A stretch of DNA of 40,615 nt from positions 1 to 40,615 of the forward strand of contig NW_021835373.1 in assembly GCF_006345805.1 (NCBI RefSeq), given 5' to 3'. The DNA comes from Octopus sinensis (taxonomy: Eukaryota). The notes beneath the pieces were generated by a model. That model saw nothing but the letters and a program-made list of their open reading frames with translations. It made no database searches and was not told the origin of the DNA. The stretch's first letter is position 1. Every line of letters begins with the position of its first letter. This document shows, one piece after another, positions 3,323 through 40,615 of this stretch. The position numbers were made by a program, and so were the translations under genes.

Positions 3323-3630
3323 AAAATTAAGGGTAGAAATTGATATTAGTCAATTAAAACCAGTGGTCTCTAGCAATAAAAGAATCCGAAGATTAAAATA
3401 TTTATATATACCAATTAAGGACTGAACACGAAAAGGTGGACAGTCAACAGCTAGATATAAGACGTCAAATCGCCATTCTCCACAAAGATTTTGTTCTCAA
3501 ATAAAAATAAAAATAAAAATAAAAATAAAAATAAAAATTTTATTGAGAACAAAATCTTTGTGGAGAATGGCGATTTGACGTCTATATCTAGCATGTTGAC
3601 TGTCCACCTTTTCGTGTTCAGTCCTTAATT

Positions 3631-3640
<10 letters not shown>
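3323..3640 (-). mobile_element. Fold-back element, probable Penelope-like inverted pLTR
   Basis: ~98-bp inverted arms 3403-3500/3543-3640 (two indels), (TAAAAA)n spacer, ~80-bp single-copy tail, in (TA)n. Confidence 0.6.
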
Positions 3641-3670
<30 letters not shown>

Positions 3671-4747: not shown

Positions 4748-6464
4748 CATTCTTTATTTTCTCTCCTTGTTTCTTTCTTTGTTGTTTCTTTATTAGCCAC
4801 ACAGAGGGGGAAACTTACAAAATAGAGCTTTGCTTTTTGGGGAGAAAAAGTAAAGAAAAACAAAAGAAAAAAGAAAAAGTGGGGTAGGTTTTCGATCAAA
4901 AGGGATCATAAAAAAAAAGATCAATAAGGTTCGCGTATCACAGAAATGTCATGATGTAAAGTCTAAAGAGGGAAGCAGATAAGGTTTATTCGTGGAAAGA
5001 AAAGCCTACGGAAAAGACCACGGTAAACTCGGTCAATAATGTCACATGTTAACACATTGATTTGCAAGAAAGTAACTCTCTGTTTTTAATTTTTACAGGT
5101 TTATAGGATTATGCTCAAGGTGGCTTTGTTATTCATACGTGCCATCCTTGCTACATTTACCCATCTTTTTTTGATACTTGAAGAAGTTGATGAGAGATTG
5201 ACTAGAGAGGAAAGTGTTTGTCTCTGATCCTTTCAGACACGTCCACCGGATACATTCTTTCGTCACAGTCACAAGTATGTTGAAAATAGCTCTTCCTGAC
5301 GATATTGACAATAGACTCGGCTGATAAACCGACTCGCCCTACACTTGACAGCAGTCGTTTCACATAAGCCCACCGGTCGGAAATGGTTAGACACTGCATG
5401 AGTGCGTGCAGAACGCTTTCGTTGCTCTGACCTCATCTCGGGCAGGTCGGCGCCGTGTTTCTCGAGCCGTGTCTGTAGCGCTTATTCCGAACGGGTAGCG
5501 CTTCTCGGTAGCACGGCCAGGGATCTCTGGAAGTTGTCCAGAGGTCCTGGCCGGAAAGTTGTCTTAAACAGGCGGGTCACGTATTCTTCGTCGACGCCCA
5601 GGTTTGTCCCAAGATCGTCATCGTACCTCCCCTCCACTAATCCCCAATAGAATGCTTTGGTTGTGTTGAAGTCGCTCAAGGTCGATCCGTGACGGCATAG
5701 TTGCTTGAGAGCAACGCGACACTAGCGGTGCCATTCGCCCTTCCTCGGCCTCTTTTTGATCCACGACTGCAGTTCGGTCATGGAAACAAGCTGCGGGAAA
5801 GCGTGCCTCACAAACGGCGACCACACCTGTTCACCGTCGTCTACGTAGAGCTGGAAATGTCGCAGTCTCAGCGCGTGTCTGCGCATCATCAACCACGTCC
5901 TCCTTTTAATGGGTGTTGACTGCAAAAGGATCGCCTGACCATCGAGATGCATCATTTCCACAAGAAGCGGAAGAGAATGTGTTCTAGTTTGGTGATGGTA
6001 GGTTCGGGAAAAGGCATTACGCAGAGTGATGGGACAAAAGTTATCTATTATGTCCCCCTTGTTTAGATCTTTCTTCAGCAGTGTTACGGCTCCTCGGCTC
6101 ACAAAATCAGAGATGCTCCCGTTTTGCTGCCAGTTGCAATACACCGCTGTGAAGACGTCTCCAAACAAGTCTGGTAACAAGCTCGTAGGGTAGACCATCC
6201 AAACCCAGCGATTTGTCCCTCGAGCATTCTGCCATCGCGTCCCGCACTTCCGCCGCCGTGATGGAACTTTCGTAGCGCCCTGCCTCTCTTGTCGAGAGTC
6301 GTGGGAGGCTGTGTATGTAGGCACTGAAGTCCACCCTACGTTCTTTCCCGCCACTCGTCCCGAACAGTCGGGCAAAAGGCTGTTGAAAGGCCTTGCACAT
6401 TTTACTTGGCTTGAGTAATTCGTGCCCCTGTCCTTGTATATCCTCAATGGCCTTCCAAAGTTTC
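4748..6464 (-). mobile_element. L1-clade (Tx1-like) LINE ORF2 pseudogene, RT core deleted
   Basis: Minus-strand peptides ITAAEVRDAM..KSLGLDGLPYEL, VTLLKKD..NFCPITLRN, ITKLEHILFRFLWK..PLKGG; stops and frameshifts; 3' UTR ends at AATAAA near 4755. Confidence 0.8.
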
Positions 6465-6735
6465 TTGCTCAGGGAAGATCATCTTTGGTAGACACGGGTC
6501 GTCCATTCGGACTACATGTCCGTTCCACCGGAGCTGGGCCTTCATGATGAGGGCTTCGATGCCGGGCATTTCGGCTCTGCGAAGTACCTCAGTGTTGGAA
6601 ATTTCTATGGGTTCGTCGCAAGCAGCAGAGGTGGGAATGGTCAAGTCCTCGCATTTGCCTCCTATACAGCGTCCACGTCCCACAGCCGTAGAGCAGAGAG
6701 GTAATGACAACTGCCATATAAACTTCCAGCTTGGT
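6465..6735 (-). mobile_element. RTE-clade LINE fragment (post-RT region)
   Basis: KLEVYMAVVITSLLYGCGTWTLYRR and ISNTEVLRRAEMPGIEALIMKAQLRWNGHVVRMDD..LPK are typical of RTE/BovB. Confidence 0.85.
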
Positions 6736-6807
<72 letters not shown>

Positions 6808-6840
6808 CATACATACATACATACATACATACATACATAC
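6735..6840. repeat. (GATA)n(CATA)n compound microsatellite
   Basis: Seen directly. Confidence 0.95.
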
Positions 6841-6889
6841 TTACATATATACAAATATAGGTGGAACTTTCTGTTTTTCTCCCGGCCCT

Positions 6890-7005
6890 TACTTGACATT
6901 CGGTGTCGGTATGTTTACGTCCTCGTGACTGAGCGGTTCGGCCAAAAGTGCGAGATAGAATAAGTACGAGGCTTTAGAAAATAATAAGTACTGGATTCGA
7001 TTAAC
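6890..7005 (+). mobile_element. SINE family A, 3' half fragment
   Basis: gtttacgtcctcgtgactgagcggttcggcc...gatagaataagtac matches the other family A copies. Confidence 0.7.
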
Positions 7006-9154: not shown

Positions 9155-10248
9155 CTTTTAATCTGCATCTTTGTTACAATCACTCGCCAAGACACACCTA
9201 GGGTCCTAGGGTGATGTGAAGGATAAGAAATGCTACAGTATGACTCAAAGCTTGGGGAGGGCAAGAGGCAGAGGCAGTGGCGAAATATCTTCATGTAATA
9301 CAACACAGACATTTAAATTGATAGCGTTTTCCGAAGGATGTGGGCAGTACTTGTCAGCACAATCTTTTAGATTTTTCTGCGACATGGTTCTCCCGGGATA
9401 TTATCTAGATGTTTTTGACATCCCTTTTTATCATACCTAGTGCACCCTCATTAACAGAACAGTTCTTGCTTTAAGATGCTACATCCTTTATATTTCAATT
9501 TCCACGTCATTAAATTTATCTAATTCGGCAAATTCCTTTACAGACATATTTTTATCATTGGAAACACTTACATCTATTAGTCTACAACTATTTTCTTCCC
9601 TGTCTTTAATAACTATGTCTGGTCAATTAGCTTGGACGTTCTGTCACTGTTGACTGGAAATCCCAGACGTTAGTAACATTTTTACCTTCAACAACTGTCT
9701 CAGGACGATGTTCATAGCAGTAACTAGGAGTGTTGATTTTGTAGTATTTACATATTTTCCAATGTAAATACCGTCCTGCGGCTATCGTGACGATTTTTCT
9801 ATTCGTTTGGTGTCAGCACAGGACATTCCGAGACGAGACGGTCTATTGTTTCGTCAAATGTGCCGGAGAATCTGCATTTAGGGACAGAACCGTTTTGAAG
9901 AACTTTAGCCTGACAGTTTTTGGTACGTACGCTTTCGTCTTGTGCCGCTAATATGAAACTTTCAGTCTCTGCTTTCAGTCCTGAGCTTCTCAGCCACTGA
10001 TGGCTTGTTGCTTGGTCTACATCAGCATTTCGCCTTCGAAGTATATACTCTCCATGCAGAGGCTTCTGGCTCAGTCGCTCCTCAGTTTGTTTTTGCCCGT
10101 TCTTTGTTGCAGTCTACTTGATCCGTTTCGCGTGTTTTGTGGCAGTGATTTCAGGTTCTTCAACTATTTCAAAGTGAATGCCAAGTTCCCTTGCGAATTT
10201 GCAAGCTTCCTTGACAATAGAATATGATCTTTTGCTGCTTTCGTGTTA
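9155..10248 (-). mobile_element. R4/Dong-clade RLE non-LTR retrotransposon, 5'-truncated, in (TAA)n
   Basis: Minus strand WLRSSGLKAETESFILAAQD, decayed CCHC (CRF..ETIDRLVSEC), RHD, WDFPV..PDIVIKD..LIDVSV..KE, KIVLTSTAHILRKTLSI*; TAA repeats on both sides. Confidence 0.85.
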
Positions 10249-12334: not shown

Positions 12335-12505
12335 TTACGTTCTGAGTTCAAATTCCACCGAGGTCGATTTAGCCTTTCATCCTTTCAAGGTCGATAAAGT
12401 AAGTACCAGTTTCGCACTAGGGTCGATGTAATCGACTTAATCCCTTTGTCTGTCATTGTTTGTCCCCTTCTATTTTTAACCCCTTGTGGGCAATATAGAA
12501 ATAAG
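12335..12505 (+). mobile_element. SINE family B (tRNA-derived, MetaSINE-like core), 5' truncated
   Basis: gttcaaattcc B box + gcctttcatccttt..ggtcgataaa..agtaccag core. Confidence 0.8.
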
Positions 12506-14963: not shown

Positions 14964-15105
14964 GTACATGCATAGCTGTGTGGTAAGGACCTTGTTTCCC
15001 AACCACATGGTTCCGGGTTTAATTTCATTCCTAGTGTTTTGTACTATAACCTCGGGCCAACTAAAGCCTTCTGAGTGGGTAAGGTAGAGGGAAACTGAAA
15101 TCCTG

Positions 15106-15108
<3 letters not shown>
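14964..15108 (+). mobile_element. SINE family A, 5' half (3' half at 17045-17250)
   Basis: gctgtgtggtaag...ccacatggttccgggtt...cctcgggcc...ggaaactgaaa, then (TA)n. Confidence 0.8.
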
Positions 15109-15145
<37 letters not shown>

Positions 15146-15173
15146 GAGAAAGAAGCAACAAGAATGGATTAGT

Positions 15174-15264
15174 TTTTAGTACAATTGTTTCATACAAAGA
15201 CAGGCTTTATTACAAGTTGCAAAAATTGCAGCAGATAAAAGTGTCCCGTACTCATCAGCTAAAA
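15174..15264 (-). ncRNA. Type I hammerhead ribozyme, long stem II, GUA cleavage site
   Basis: Exact reverse complement of 16198-16288. Confidence 0.8.
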
Positions 15265-15380
15265 TACATATGAGTTCTCCAGACATCTTAGTGGGTGAGG
15301 TTATACTCATGAAATATTGGAGATAATTCCATTAAAGGCAGATATAGATTGCAAACAGTTTTTCAAAGTTCCTTAATGAT

Positions 15381-15584
15381 GATGCACAGTCTTATCACAG
15401 ATTTTTAAAATCTTATTAGTTTCAAAGAGAAGATGAATTAATCCATAGTGTAGATTTAAATTTCCAGAGATATGAGGAGGGTGATGCACAGACTTATCAC
15501 AGGTTTTTAAAAAAACTTATTAGCTTCACAGAAAAGGTGAATTAATCCGTAGTGAAGATTTAAATTTCCAGCGGTATGAGGAGG
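15381..15584. repeat. ~102-bp tandem duplication (2 copies)
   Basis: gatgcacag.cttatcacag...tgaattaatcc.tagtg.agatttaaatttccag...tatgaggagg at 15381 and 15483. Confidence 0.85.
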
Positions 15585-16197
15585 AAATTTCATACTCACA
15601 GACGATGAATTTAACCATTATTAATCCACAATCATTTCATGCTATATGATAAGGTAATTTGCCATATTACTGCTCTCCGTGCAAAACTGCTATGTTAATA
15701 TTTCTAAAGCTGAAGGAATTTACTTGTGGGGCAAAGAAAATAAAATGACAGAAAAAAGAAAAGAGACAAGGAAAAAAGAAAAAGAAAAAGAAAAAGAAAA
15801 AGAAAAAGAAAAAGAAAAAAGAAACAAAAAGAAAAAGAAAAAGAAAAAACGAAACGGGGGAGAAGGATAAGAGAAGGATAGAAAAGAAAAAGAAAAAGAA
15901 AAAGAAAAAGGAAAAGAAAAAGAAAAAAGGGGAAGAGGGAGCTAATAAGTTTTTTTTAAAAACCTGTGATAAGTCTGTGCATCACCCTCCTCATATCTCT
16001 GGAAATTTAAATCTACACTATGGATTAATTCATCTTCTTTTGAAACTAATAAGATTTTAAAAATCTGTGATAAGAAGTGCATCATCATTAAGGAACTTTG
16101 AAAAACTGTTTGCAATCTATATCTGCCTTTAATGGAATTATCTCCAATATTCATGAGTTAACCTCACCCAGTAAGATGTCTGGAGAACTCATATGTA

Positions 16198-16288
16198 TTT
16201 TAGCTGATGAGTACGGGACACTTTTATCTGCTGCAATTTTTGCAACTTGTAATAAAGCCTGTCTTTGTATGAAACAATTGTACTAAAA
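16198..16288 (+). ncRNA. Type I hammerhead ribozyme, long stem II, GUA cleavage site
   Basis: UUUUAG-CUGAUGA-GUACGGGACA..UGCAA-uuu-UUGCA..UGUCUUUGUAU-GAAA-CAAUUG-UA|CUAAAA; 6-bp stem I; predicted cut after 16282. Confidence 0.8.
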
Positions 16289-16441
16289 ACTAATCCATTC
16301 TTGTTGGTTCTTTCTCGTTTATAATCACCCCACATTACTGTATGGTTAACACCATATAGTTTTTCTGGTGCATCTAAGTTAAGTACCACATTCAAGACAA
16401 TCATTGGAATACTTGAATCTTAATTGCTTTTATATATATAT

Positions 16442-16520
<79 letters not shown>

Positions 16521-16531
16521 ATATATACATA

Positions 16532-16820
16532 TATAATATATTCGAGACAAAACCACTATTTTAAAACCAAACAAGGAAAGACTTAATCAATACATAAAAT
16601 TTTAATATAAATTAAATAAAATAAATATTTATTTATTTTATTTATTTAATTTATTTATTTAATTTATATTAAAATTTTATGTATTGATTAAGTCTTTCCT
16701 TGTTTGGTTTTAAAATAGTGGTTTTGTCTCGAATTATATTATATAATATTTTACTATAAATTGGATTTAACCCTAAATCTGATTTTTCCCTGTAATTTTG
16801 GATTCATTCCCTAATATTTA
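16532..16820 (+). mobile_element. Fold-back Penelope-like 3' end, same family as 40098-40452
   Basis: 80-bp inverted arms 16541-16620/16654-16733; arm and tail clearly homologous to 40098-40250. Confidence 0.7.
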
Positions 16821-16909
16821 TTATATACATATATATATATACATATATATATACGCACACATACATATAATATATGTATATATATACACAATATATATAT
16901 ATATGTGTA

Positions 16910-21967: not shown

Positions 21968-22370
21968 TCTTTATACTGTAGTCACAAGGCCCGAAATTTT
22001 TGGGAAGGGAGCCAGTCGGTTAGATCAACCTCAGTACGCAACTGGTATTTCATTTATCTACGCCGAAATGATGAAAGTGAAAGGCAAAGTCAACCTTGGC
22101 GGAAATTGAACTCAGAGCGTAAATACACGAAATACCTATTTCTTTACTACCCACAAGGTGCTAGACACAGAGGGGACAAACAAGGACAGACAAACGAATC
22201 AAGTCGATTATATCGGTCCCAGTACGCAACTGGTACTTATTTAATCGACCTCGAAAGGATGAAAGGCAAAGTCGACCTCGGCGGAATTTGAACTCAGAAC
22301 GTAATGGCGGACGAAATACCACAAGGCATTTCGCCCGGCGTGCTTAACGTTTCTGCCAGCTCGCCGCCTT
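21968..22370 (-). mobile_element. SINE family B, tandem/dimeric copy
   Basis: Two core + B-box units; head ends ttctgccagctcgccgcctt at 22370; in TAA/TAG repeats. Confidence 0.85.
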
Positions 22371-22374
22371 AATG

Positions 22375-24483: not shown

Positions 24484-24559
24484 TGCATTGAGAATGAGGA
24501 AACAAGTTGTGCCTTGGACTGCATTTTTGTCTGGTAGACATCAGCAAAAAAATTGCTTA

Positions 24560-24747
24560 TTCGTTTACTTCTTTCAGTCATTTGACTGCGACCATGCTGG
24601 AGCAATGCCTTTAGTCGAACAAATCGACCCCGGGACTTATTCTTTGTTAGCCCGGTACTTATTATATCGGTCTCTTTTGCGGAACCGCTAAGTTACATAA
24701 ACACACTAGCATCGGTTGTCAAGCAATGCTAGGGGGACGAACACAGT

Positions 24748-24845
<98 letters not shown>

Positions 24846-25013
24846 TATATACGACGGCTTCTTTTGAGTTTCCGTCTATCAAATCCACTCACAAGGCGTT
24901 GTTCGGCCCGAGGCTATAGAAAAAGACACTTGCCCAAGGTGCAACGCAGTGGGACTGAACCCGGAAGCATGTGGTTGGTAAGCAAGCTACTTACGCAGAG
25001 CCACGCCTGGGCC
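24560..25013 (-). mobile_element. SINE family A, full length, internal (CA)n(TA)n
   Basis: Complete head, body and tail matching the 37058-37487 copy. Confidence 0.9.
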
Positions 25014-25434
25014 TATAAACAATGCCCCGTAATCTTGTCAGATTTAATGGATAGAGTAGTTTCGAGATTTCCAGAAAGTATTAACATTAAGGAGATGCAT
25101 AATTGTTTGAATTCTTGCTGTTTTACCTCATGAAAATAAATTGACAGATTTAAATATTGATTTGCAAACAATTTCATTGTAAAACACAGGAGCCAACAAC
25201 AGGAATATCTAGTCACCTCTTACGAAATTTCAAAATTAATTTAACCATTACCTAGTACTGATAAATCTCTCGACCTACCAGCTGTAGCTAAAATTATACC
25301 CTCGTATACCGCTGCATAAGACGGGCTTTTTTTTTTATTTAAATGTAACAACAAATTGACGTGCGTCTAAAGCGATGGTATTTCAGTTGGGATACCGAAT
25401 ATAGGCCGGGTGTAATCATTTTCCGTGTATCTGT

Positions 25435-33720: not shown

Positions 33721-33794
33721 GTTGCTGTAGCTGGGACGGTCCTGCTGATATAAACGAATACATAACCTTTATAGTATACAGGACAAATATTCTT

Positions 33795-34115
33795 CAGGCA
33801 GCGAGATGGCAGAATTCTTTGCTGGACGAAATGTTTACCGGTATTTCGTCTGCCGCTACGTTCTGAGTTCAAATTCCGCCGAGGTCGACTTTTCCTTTCA
33901 TCCTTTCGGGGTCGATTAAATAAGTACCAGTTACGCACTGGGGTCGATATAATCGACTTAATCAGTTTGTCCGTCCTTGTTTGTCCTCTCTGTGTTTAGG
34001 CCCTTGTAGGTAGTAAAGAAATAGGTATTTCGTTTGCCGTTACGTTCTGAGTTCAAATTCCACCGAGGTCGACTTTGCCTTTCATCCTTTCGAGCCCGAT
34101 ATATTAAGTACCAGT
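33795..34115 (+). mobile_element. SINE family B, tandem/dimeric copy
   Basis: ggtatttcgt..acgttctgagttcaaattcc.ccgaggtcgacttt..cctttcatcctttcg repeated at ~33840 and ~34024. Confidence 0.9.
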
Positions 34116-34544
34116 AAAACGCTCCAATATTGCAAACCAACCCCCAAGCCTTGTATTAAACAAATAATCCGCGATCTAACATCGGAGAACTCTGCCAATA
34201 TAGAACCCGCTACATGTCTTTCCATGTTTTGGAAACTATTCAAAACCGACGTTAACAAATACAATACCATAACTCTCAGAGAGACACAAAAGCTACGGGG
34301 CACAGCCAGACCTCCACTCCCACCGGTCCACACAAATAAAGAACAACAAAGCTGTCGCCACTTCTAGCATTCTTCTTGATTTTTCATTCATTAATTCCAC
34401 TTTATATCTCAATTTCCAGCTTAAAACCGTCATTTTCGTGCCTATTCTCTATTTTTCGCCTTTTCTCAGAACATATGTGTGCGTGCGCAAGCACGTGCGC
34501 GTAGGTTTGCATTCGCACACCTGATATGCATGGACGTATGTGTG

Positions 34545-34584
<40 letters not shown>

Positions 34585-34589
34585 CACAT

Positions 34590-34641
<52 letters not shown>

Positions 34642-34645
<4 letters not shown>

Positions 34646-35581
34646 CGCATCTGCAACATGAGCTGTACACAATATACAGGTGGGCTGAGGACAACAACAT
34701 GCAGTTTAATGCAGGTAAGTTCCAGGCCCTGCGTTACTGGCACACAAAGGTAAATGACGTGAAGACTGGATACACTGGCCCAGGAAGAATTGCAATCCCT
34801 GAGTCAAAATCAGTGCGTGACCTGGGCATTGACATGAGCAATGATGCATCTTTCCAAATGCATATTGCTAATCTGGTGATAAAATGCAGACGGCTAGCTG
34901 GATGGATTCTCCGAACTTTCAGAACAAGATAGAAGGAGACACTGATGGTCCTATGGAAAACATTTGTCCTCAGCCGCTTGGACTACTGCTCCCAACTTTG
35001 GTCACCACACAATATAAACAAACAGCAGAACTCGAAGCAACTCAGAGAAGCTACACAAAGAAAATCGTCTCAATGCAAAATGTCAGCTACTGGGAAAGAC
35101 TGAAGGTATTAAACCTCTTCTCCCTGGAGCGGAGGCGGGAGAGATATGCAGTGATATACATCTGGAAAATCCTGGAGGGTCTTGTCCCAAACTTTGGCAT
35201 TCAAAGTTACTCCAACCCAGAACGGGGCGCCGCTGCGTGGTGCCAAGGATTCCAACATCACCATCAAAATACAGGTCCAGATTCTGCAACAGCTTGGGTT
35301 TCAGAGGACCACAGCTCTTTAACATCCTCCCTAAATGCCTGAGAGACTTACATGGTGTGGATGTGGGTTTCTTTAAACTAAACTGGATCTCTTCTTGTTG
35401 GGAGTCCCAGATGAACCTACCTCACGACAGGAGACACGGATGCGGACAGCAGCATCGAAATCCCTTGTTGATCAAGTGCCACGTATCAGAGGTGGATTCA
35501 CAAACTAGTGTAGCTCATTCAGCGGTGGTACCCCAGCATGGCCGCGGCCTTCGGGCTAAAACATTTTTAAGGATTTAAGGA
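34642..35581 (+). mobile_element. CR1/L2-group LINE, 5'-truncated 3' portion
   Basis: WAEDNNMQFNAGKF..VRDLGI..ILRTF, LDYCSQLWSP, YWERLKVLNLFSLERRRER; 3' tail cccagcatggccgcgg..aaaacatttttaaggatttaaggat. Confidence 0.9.
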
Positions 35582-37057: not shown

Positions 37058-37291
37058 TTTACTCTTTTATTTGTTTCAGTCATTTGACTGTGGCCATGCT
37101 GCCGCACCGCCTTTGGTTGAGCAACTCGACCCCAGGAGTTATTCTTTGTAAGCCTAGTACTATCGTCACTTTTGCCGAACCGCTAACTTACGGGGACGTA
37201 AACACACCAGCATCGGTTGTCAAGCGATGTTGGGGGGACAAACACACACACACAAACACACGCAAACACACACACACAAACACACGCATAT

Positions 37292-37322
<31 letters not shown>

Positions 37323-37487
37323 CGACGGGCTTCTTTCAGTTTCCGTCTACCAAATCCACTCACAAGGCTTTGGTCGGCCCGAGGCTATAGTAGAAGACAC
37401 TTGCCCAAGGAGCCACGCAGTGGGACTGAACTCGGAACCATGTGATTCGTAAGCAAGCTACTTACCACACAGCCACTCCTACGCCTA
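37058..37487 (-). mobile_element. SINE family A (Octopus-type tRNA-derived), full length, young
   Basis: A box tggctgtgtggtaag, B box gttccgagttcagtcc, internal (TG)n/(TA)n, tail cagcatggccacagtcaaatgactgaaacaaataaaagag. Confidence 0.9.
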
Positions 37488-37559
37488 TGCGTATATATAT
37501 ATATATATATATATATATGCATTTGTGTATCTCTCTCTCTCTCTCTCTCTCTCTCTATA

Positions 37560-39356: not shown

Positions 39357-40097
39357 AACACTCGCTAAAAGCATGTAAATATATATTAGTATACACATAT
39401 TTATATATATATATATGTATATATATATATACATGTATATATATATACGTATATATATATGTATGTATATATATATAGATATATATATGTATGTATATAT
39501 ATATATATGCATGCATGTATGTATGCATGCATTTATGTATATAAGTATGCACGTATTCCCGTGCAGAGTCACTTTCCTGAAAACGTTAGAATCAAAAGAA
39601 ATATGAGGAAATATAAATTTTTTTTTTTTTAAGTAACCAGAGAGAACGTGGCGAATATATGGTTTAGGAACGACAACCCCACCAGTGCGGAAATACTCCG
39701 ACATCACTGACAATCTGACAGAACGTTGACAAGTATAATTGAGTGACTTCCAATATCATTAGAAATATTTATGTGGTGACAGGGACACCGTAGGCATATA
39801 ACGGCATGAACAGAGAGAATGAATAAGTACTAATATAATTTGAGGTAAAAGAGAAGGAAAAACGTGAGGACTGAAAATTAAAAGACATGCCTCAGTGGTT
39901 AAGAAGCTTGTTTTGGAAGCACGAGGTGTACGGTTCAATCTCGATACCTGGTAAATTTTAGCTAGTCTGTTCTGCTGTATCTGCGGATGACTAATCGAGC
40001 AATACTTGAATTCGTAGATGTATATATGTGAGTGTATGCGTGTGTGTATGTATGTATGCATATATGCATATATATATATATATAATAATAATAATAA

Positions 40098-40452
40098 ATA
40101 TTAGGGAATAAATCCAAATTTACAGGGATAAAAATCAGATTTAGGATTAAATCCAATTTTATAGTAAAATATTATAAAATATTATTAGAGACAAAACCAC
40201 TATTTTGCAAAACAAACAAGGAAAGACTTAATCAATACATAAAATTTTAATAAATAGTCAAAAAAACCGCCACTACAATTGTTTCTTGTCTTGATCGACA
40301 ATCTTCAGGTGGACTTCCAATAAGTCAGTTTCAAATTATGAAGTAATTGTAGTGGCGGTTTTTTTGACTATTTATTAAAATTTTATGTATTGATTAAGTC
40401 TTTCCTTGTTTGTTTTGCAAAATAGTGGTTTTGTCTCTAATAATATTTTATA
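40098..40452 (-). mobile_element. Fold-back Penelope-like pLTR with intact hammerhead
   Basis: 108-bp inverted arms 40173-40280/40345-40452, ~75-bp tail, (TA)n flanks. Confidence 0.8.
40270..40312 (-). ncRNA. Minimal type I hammerhead ribozyme, GUA site
   Basis: Minus strand CCAC-CUGAAGA-UUGUC-GAUCAA-GACAA-GAAA-CAAUUG-UA|GUGG; all core positions and three stems intact. Confidence 0.85.
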
Positions 40453-40615
40453 TATATATATATGTACATATGATGTGATATACCTACACTTTCAGGTGCA
40501 TTTGAATTCATTATACCGTTTCCCACCCACGAGGGAGTAGCACAGAATTATAGCGAAACGATCGTTATGATAAATGAAGTTTCCTTCATACTCTGGATAT
40601 ATATATATATATATA

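Follow-up and report, generated by a model that had tools for sequence, protein, structure and literature searches.

Divergent twin hammerhead motifs with a long stem II in an octopus genome, probably left by one Penelope-like insertion

The window analysed here, a stretch of 40,615 nucleotides from Octopus sinensis (contig NW_021835373.1), is microsatellite-rich animal sequence with LINE remnants, and it carries two hammerhead ribozyme motifs that point away from each other on opposite strands. An earlier note on this DNA saw in the pair a possibly undescribed hammerhead variant or a non-autonomous retrozyme-like element, with a potential built-in switch between cleavage and long double-stranded RNA. 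The question is whether the locus requires such an element or whether a known class of retroelement would leave the same trace. By analogy with described insertions, we consider it very probable that the locus stems from one insertion of the Penelope-like element (PLE) type, in which reverse transcription (RT) would have started at two sites and the two truncated copies would have been joined head to head in a (TA)n run. Twin motifs facing apart have been described before, and their pairing here is incidental; as an arrangement, the unit amounts to commonplace retroelement debris. The sole mildly new aspect is the 60 nt of stem II, a modest variant for an animal family of high copy number.

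The right motif (16198–16288, + strand) is the exact reverse complement of the left one (15174–15264, − strand) over all 91 nt. Each reads, in order, a 6-bp stem I, CUGAUGA, 60 nt, GAAA, CAAUUG, UA and the returning strand of stem I; in the right copy, stem I is formed by 16198–16203 and 16283–16288, and the CUGAUGA core lies at 16204–16210, stem II at 16211–16270 and GAAA at 16271–16274. In both motifs, ACAAUUGU makes up a palindromic stem III. A GUA triplet stands ahead of the predicted cut, which would fall after 16282 in the right motif and after 15180 in the left. The motif thus has the CUGANGA...GAAA...UH core and open helix I of a type I hammerhead, and the elements originally listed for each copy (6-bp stem I, CUGAUGA/GAAA core, GUA triplet, palindromic stem III) are all in place. 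With a descriptor permitting a stem II of up to 80 nt, we obtained three matches in the window (both twin motifs, the right one included as a descriptor match in its own right, and one at 40308) and none in 60 block-shuffled windows. A scan for the core pattern gave no matches in viral contigs and 59 in metagenome contigs, the latter dismissed as chance since none (0/59) had a stem I of at least 4 bp and they gave 0 BLAST hits. Considering the shuffled windows and the metagenome cores together, the hammerhead motif is not a chance occurrence, and the claim of two identical type I hammerheads on opposite strands stands.

The comparison with Rfam hammerhead type I models that had been proposed as a check went the other way: the element gave 8 matches at E ≤ 10 with no hammerhead among them, and for the whole window the 150 matches listed, out of 289, were solely to miRNAs and driven by microsatellites. 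Rfam also fails on the short hammerhead at 40308, and we therefore regard this criterion as insensitive to such motifs. As a separate observation, stem I has UUUUAG as its 5′ strand (window 16198–16204). This sequence resembles a 3′ splice site immediately ahead of the core, and splicing at this candidate site would take away stem I. In D. virilis Penelope, a 3′ splice site reportedly lies directly before the hammerhead core.

The motifs lie in a 1.29-kb unit composed of two 5′-truncated copies of a high-copy repeat, set head to head in a (TA)n run. To the left is a SINE-like repeat (14975–15107, + strand; second copy at 37285–37473, 75% identical), which we take to be a SINE and whose (TA)n tail is the insertion target. 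Both outer ends of the unit adjoin (TA)n, with target runs at 15108–15144 on the left and 16432–16520 on the right. The left copy (15145–15939, − strand, ~795 nt) is, by arm comparison and family coverage, the tail-less 3′ end of a 5′-truncated element. Read in ribozyme sense (15939 to 15145), it opens with a pyrimidine tract, continues through unique sequence (~160 nt) and a tandem duplication of ~105 bp, and closes with the ribozyme and the 35 nt that follow the cut. Family coverage extends to about 15750–15790 in 4/4 sequencing runs, 15762–15938 having been skipped as repeat. The copy breaks off at the far end of the pyrimidine tract (15746–15939, − strand; (GAAAAA)n on the + strand, where 186/194 bases are purine), and this tract presumably belongs to the 3′ UTR of the element. 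The tandem duplication (15380–15584, − strand; unit ~103–105 bp, 87% identical) varies among family copies, with joints skipping 105–106 bp at this place in 4/4 runs.

The right copy (15940–16431, + strand), defined by arm comparison, is a shorter 5′-truncated 3′ end with a tail. It begins inside the duplicated unit at the palindrome AGCT (15940–15943), which marks the head-to-head junction, and extends ~110 nt past the point where the left copy ends. This one-sided tail (16318–16431, + strand, about 108–114 nt, with a 10-bp hairpin) is missing from the left copy. The predicted cut lies 35 nt from the short end and 149 nt from the long end. The segment from the cut to the end of the tail (16283–16431) folds with z −2.5 (2/200 shuffles as good). 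It is a candidate RT start or protein-binding signal.

The locus had been presented as a 380-bp fold-back element, and mirror arms are indeed there, but the unit as a whole is asymmetric: the left copy measures ~795 nt, the right copy alone has the tail, the palindrome stops short of the flanks, and the left copy has a 414-bp unique 5′ part. The arms (15145–15525 and 15940–16317) differ at 8/382 columns; 5 of the differences are one-base indels and 3 are substitutions, and none lies within the 91-nt ribozyme. While the earlier note was right that the differences all lie outside the ribozyme, this distribution carries no weight, because it would arise by chance with a probability of 0.11, and identity inside the ribozyme therefore shows no selection. 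Chance, together with a single insertion event, explains the identity of the two motifs.

The repeat is widely dispersed. Part of the right copy was found in 20/24 listed sequencing runs, and contigs matching the family numbered 2012, 65, 770 and 1019 in four runs (4/4). In the three large runs, the depth summed over contigs, which is not a copy number, was 1–6e5 over the ribozyme and 3′ end versus 3e2–2e3 at 15662–15747, a gradient that fits the 5′ truncation of a retroelement. Other copies contain at least 16 joints from left arm to right arm at differing positions, read as further head-to-head insertions, although the joint contigs are short and the extent of the arms beyond their ends is thus not proven. 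Among those listed, both ribozymes would survive in 2/16 joints and one or both would be lost in 14/16, and the pairing of ribozyme-bearing arms is a by-product of where truncation falls. No run recorded as RNA contains the stretch, which carries no evidence on expression. Family coverage falls near 16390 and one contig continues 255 nt beyond 16396, which suggests that other copies continue differently past the tail.

Three further fold-backs in (TA)n, each tailed on one arm, occur in the window, which makes this geometry a general feature of insertions of this kind in the genome. One (arms 16530–16626/16649–16745, window 16530–16826) was inserted immediately to the right of the twin unit, within the adjoining (TA)n run, and belongs to a second PLE-like family, truncated 3′ of the ribozyme. 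Another (arms 40169–40280/40345–40457, window 40085–40457) is of the same second family and carries, on its longer arm, the minus-strand hammerhead with its core at 40308; this is short and minimal and has a 4-bp stem I, a 16-nt stem II and stem III letters identical to those of the twin motifs, and the partner arm is truncated within the motif. The last (arms 3398–3506/3538–3645, spanning window 3323–3645) is of a third family with a (TAAAAA)n loop between its arms, and the hammerhead descriptor gave no match in it.

This anatomy is the one described for endonuclease-bearing (EN+) PLEs. Their insertions are characterized by an inverted 5′-truncated copy, a one-sided tail and a (TA)n target bias (Craig 2021, PMC8557442), repeats joined head to head across a junction palindrome have been reported (Arkhipova 2013, PMC3846280), and the tail has been equated with the stretch between two RT start sites, the target being AT-rich (Frangieh 2024, PMC11167929). 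According to the last of these sources, hammerhead cleavage requires the protein. Here, we found an inverted 5′-truncated copy with variable junctions, a tail at one end, a sense hammerhead near the 3′ end, a dispersed multi-copy 5′-truncated family and an AT-rich, microsatellite target. The unit thus has in common with EN+ PLEs (Penelope/Poseidon, Neptune, Nematis, Hydra, Naiad), as described in these sources, the head-to-head copies, the one-copy tail, the junction palindrome, the (TA)n target and the sense hammerhead near the 3′ end, whereas it differs in being ORF-less and in a tail of about 110 nt instead of the usual 30–40 bp. Naiads in particular are described with an N-terminal GIY-YIG, a CxC motif and no canonical hammerhead; the unit seen here is ORF-less and has a complete hammerhead motif. 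The divergent orientation, initially taken as unusual, has precedents. Cervera and de la Pena (2014, PMC4209133) reported dual hammerheads that lie on opposite strands at a distance of 100–700 bp and regarded them as probably truncated PLEs, Penelope-13_HM bears one hammerhead per strand (antisense at position 102, sense at 2944; PMC8557442), and inverted 5′-truncated copies are standard PLE anatomy. For Octopus vulgaris, 31 recently active Penelope-like families have been reported in an article whose main text leaves ribozymes unmentioned (PMC13282606).

A coding parent was sought in and beside the unit, and neither RT nor GIY-YIG was found by Pfam, word-seeded searches, phmmer or ESM Atlas. 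Pfam gave 0/12 meaningful results on 12 frames (single match, E = 0.088), three word-seeded protein searches gave no match, and the best ESM Atlas score, 0.84 for a 76-aa antisense ORF, was within the range of shuffled proteins. Nine short words from the twin-unit and neighbouring families had 0/9 matches in the published Naiad, Chlamys and Hydra consensus files, where line breaks can hide matches. Two phmmer matches (E 6e-9 and 8e-4) to bacterial Ig/PKD repeat proteins were discarded as sums of weak repeated matches, and one sense frame that by eye resembled the end of a Hydra-clade endonuclease was backed by no search. A missing ORF is expected, since the unit consists of 5′-truncated 3′-end fragments, and as neither RT nor endonuclease turned up at the locus, it is the architecture that carries the assignment to PLEs. 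The long tail, the parent element sequence, which was not found, the 0/9 word matches and the failure of Rfam to recognize the motif count against a PLE origin. A target-site duplication is unreadable because the target is (TA)n.

Under a PLE origin, the unit could have formed as follows. A GIY-YIG/RT protein encoded by the element and supplied in trans would nick the AT-rich target, by analogy with Anolis Poseidon, and reverse transcription would begin at two sites on the RNA of the element, one near 16317 and one near 16431, with the interval between them becoming the tail. Both cDNAs would then stop early and their 5′ ends would be joined at AGCT, each having happened to reach far enough to take in the ribozyme. 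In the parent element, the ribozyme is predicted to cut after GUA only as a dimer, via the ACAAUUGU palindrome, or with protein help. At this locus, the two motifs would be unable to pair in cis, and read-through RNA would instead form a ~380-bp duplex.

Folding with ViennaRNA, whose model lacks tertiary contacts and Mg2+, bears on the proposed switch. The cleavage-competent secondary structure had a probability of 0.008 in the 91-mer, which fell to 1.7e-5 to 7.5e-7 when flanks were included and to about 1e-96 in read-through RNA of either strand, in which the long hairpin was favoured over the active fold by about 135 kcal/mol of ensemble energy. A read-through transcript would therefore be a long duplex locked in its hairpin, not a switch between cleavage and double-stranded RNA as had been suggested. 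The swapped dimer with an 8-bp helix III came to −32.6 kcal/mol versus −36.7 for the best two-strand fold. Both hammerheads at this locus are thus predicted by the model to be silent; only a transcript initiated between the arms would be modelled to expose one motif, and this would still require a partner in trans.

The length of stem II sets these motifs apart from other PLE hammerheads. Known ones share with them the CUGAUGA/GAAA core, a short palindromic helix III, a predicted dependence on dimers, a high dispersed copy number and occasional opposite-strand pairs; palindromic helix III and weak cleavage as dimers have been described (PMC4209133). Known PLE hammerheads have 7–8-bp helices and a conserved G10.1–C11.1 pair, whereas the helix II region here is 60 nt, with G.U at that position, and in the fold used position 9 is not followed by an extra base. 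Standard descriptors take 7–17 nt between the core halves, and the animal rows of File S2 (n = 26) have about 25 nt or less (PMC8557442), so stem II here is longer than in the animal PLE ribozymes of those rows. In the same source, the spike-moss PLE-X1_sMoe and PLE-X1_sTam have about 48–53 nt between core halves, and eight Naiads, which are described as without canonical hammerheads, appear as 'HHR_half_core' cases with halves 35–50 nt apart. The core spacing in these two groups is similarly long, but PLE-X1 is a plant EN-minus element marked as deviating and the Naiad motifs are incomplete, whereas the present motif comes from an animal host and has perfect stems I and III. In the literature covered, which did not extend to the work on dimeric PLE hammerheads and Terminons, we found no hammerhead of an animal PLE whose stem II measures ~60 nt.

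That stem II forms a ~60-nt hairpin held as to length; it is, however, imperfect and not significantly stable. The segment at 16211–16270 (+ strand), the sole atypical feature of the motif, folds at −11.5 kcal/mol with z −1.55 (17/200 shuffles equally good; z −1.4 to −1.55 across estimates), and the 4 bp predicted at its base are closed by G.U rather than the usual G10.1–C11.1. It is spanned by at least 5 pieces among the 32 listed (3878 more lay beyond the listing), 3 of which are 13–19% diverged and gapless, and no joint among those listed skips it. Because of this, the 60-nt stem II seems to be shared across the whole family. Among the 40 of 113 variant rows listed, two fall in the ribozyme; both lie within stem II, and the core and stems I and III have none. 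The two are not compensatory and jointly lower the stability of the hairpin to −9.9 kcal/mol.

How much of this requires something other than a PLE insertion depends on three alternatives. Short non-coding hammerhead elements can arise from PLE pLTRs (bioRxiv 10.64898/2026.07.22.740005), and animal non-LTR retrozymes resemble the present family in being non-coding, AT-rich, high in copy number and PLE-related, with a type I hammerhead. A non-autonomous retrozyme-like element whose twin ribozymes and fold-back were selected as a cleavage/dsRNA switch would also suit the intact, identical motifs, the 2 other listed joints that would retain both, and the presence of family sequence in one run guessed to be RNA. 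Non-LTR retrozymes are, however, defined by direct tandem arrays (PMC7229834; bioRxiv 10.64898/2026.07.22.740005), with units of 150–450 bp, each with a hammerhead, that yield circular RNA, whereas we observed an inverted pair of unequal truncations with one motif per strand, and the sole tandem unit (105 bp) is motif-less. Considering also that the junctions vary and mostly lose a motif (14/16 listed), and that the hairpin beats the active fold by so wide an energy, we find this reading quite improbable; what survives of the earlier classification is a PLE-kind type I motif with an unusually long stem II. We give slightly less credence still to a fold-back or MITE-type DNA transposon, or an assembly artefact, bearing a chance hammerhead look-alike. 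Long inverted arms and TA flanks would suit it, and the 5/8 arm differences that are one-base indels are possibly consensus errors, but the arms are asymmetric (a one-sided tail, and the 414-bp unique 5′ part opposite), the palindrome ends before the flanks, coverage is 3′-biased with varying junctions, and look-alikes appeared in 0/60 shuffles, with 0/59 chance cores having a stem I.

A PLE-derived unit with a dead ribozyme is compatible with the explanation preferred for the origin and differs from it on activity alone. In this case, the long stem II would be an old insertion, passively carried, with cleavage unneeded; the weak fold and G.U closure of stem II and its two common, non-compensatory variants are in keeping with it, as is the published evidence that cleavage is dispensable for Poseidon insertion in vitro (PMC11167929) and that Naiads do without canonical hammerheads (PMC8557442). 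Against this, the motif is perfect in its core and in stems I and III, where none of the listed variants falls (0 of 40, from a total of 113), while two of them lie in stem II. We regard a dead ribozyme as a serious possibility, if somewhat doubtful. It appears rather unlikely that the hammerhead is active in a successful animal PLE family with a conserved 60-nt arm that docks the element protein or substitutes for the loop I–loop II contact; were this so, cleavage would be protein-gated. 

With the PLE insertion retained as the origin, the interest of the locus shifts from the pair to the family. As standard descriptors and Rfam miss the motif, animal genomes may contain a high-copy family of hammerheads with a long stem II that has gone uncounted, and the Naiad 'half-core' cases may in part be hammerheads of this kind. 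If the motif cleaves, it would serve as a natural experiment on the need of PLE hammerheads for a helix I–helix II contact or for protein help. Fold-back insertions that are read through would be a potential source of long double-stranded RNA (small RNAs, A-to-I editing).

Other repeats in the window were noted in passing. Decayed frames at 5722–6900 (−), 34525–35575 (+) and 9802–10113 (−) look by eye like LINE reverse-transcriptase remnants, with no meaningful Pfam match for two ORFs from 5722–6900 (−). Two dispersed SINE-like repeat families are represented by several copies, at 22073–22372, 33793–34091 and 12335–12503 and at 24557–25016 and 37059–37488.
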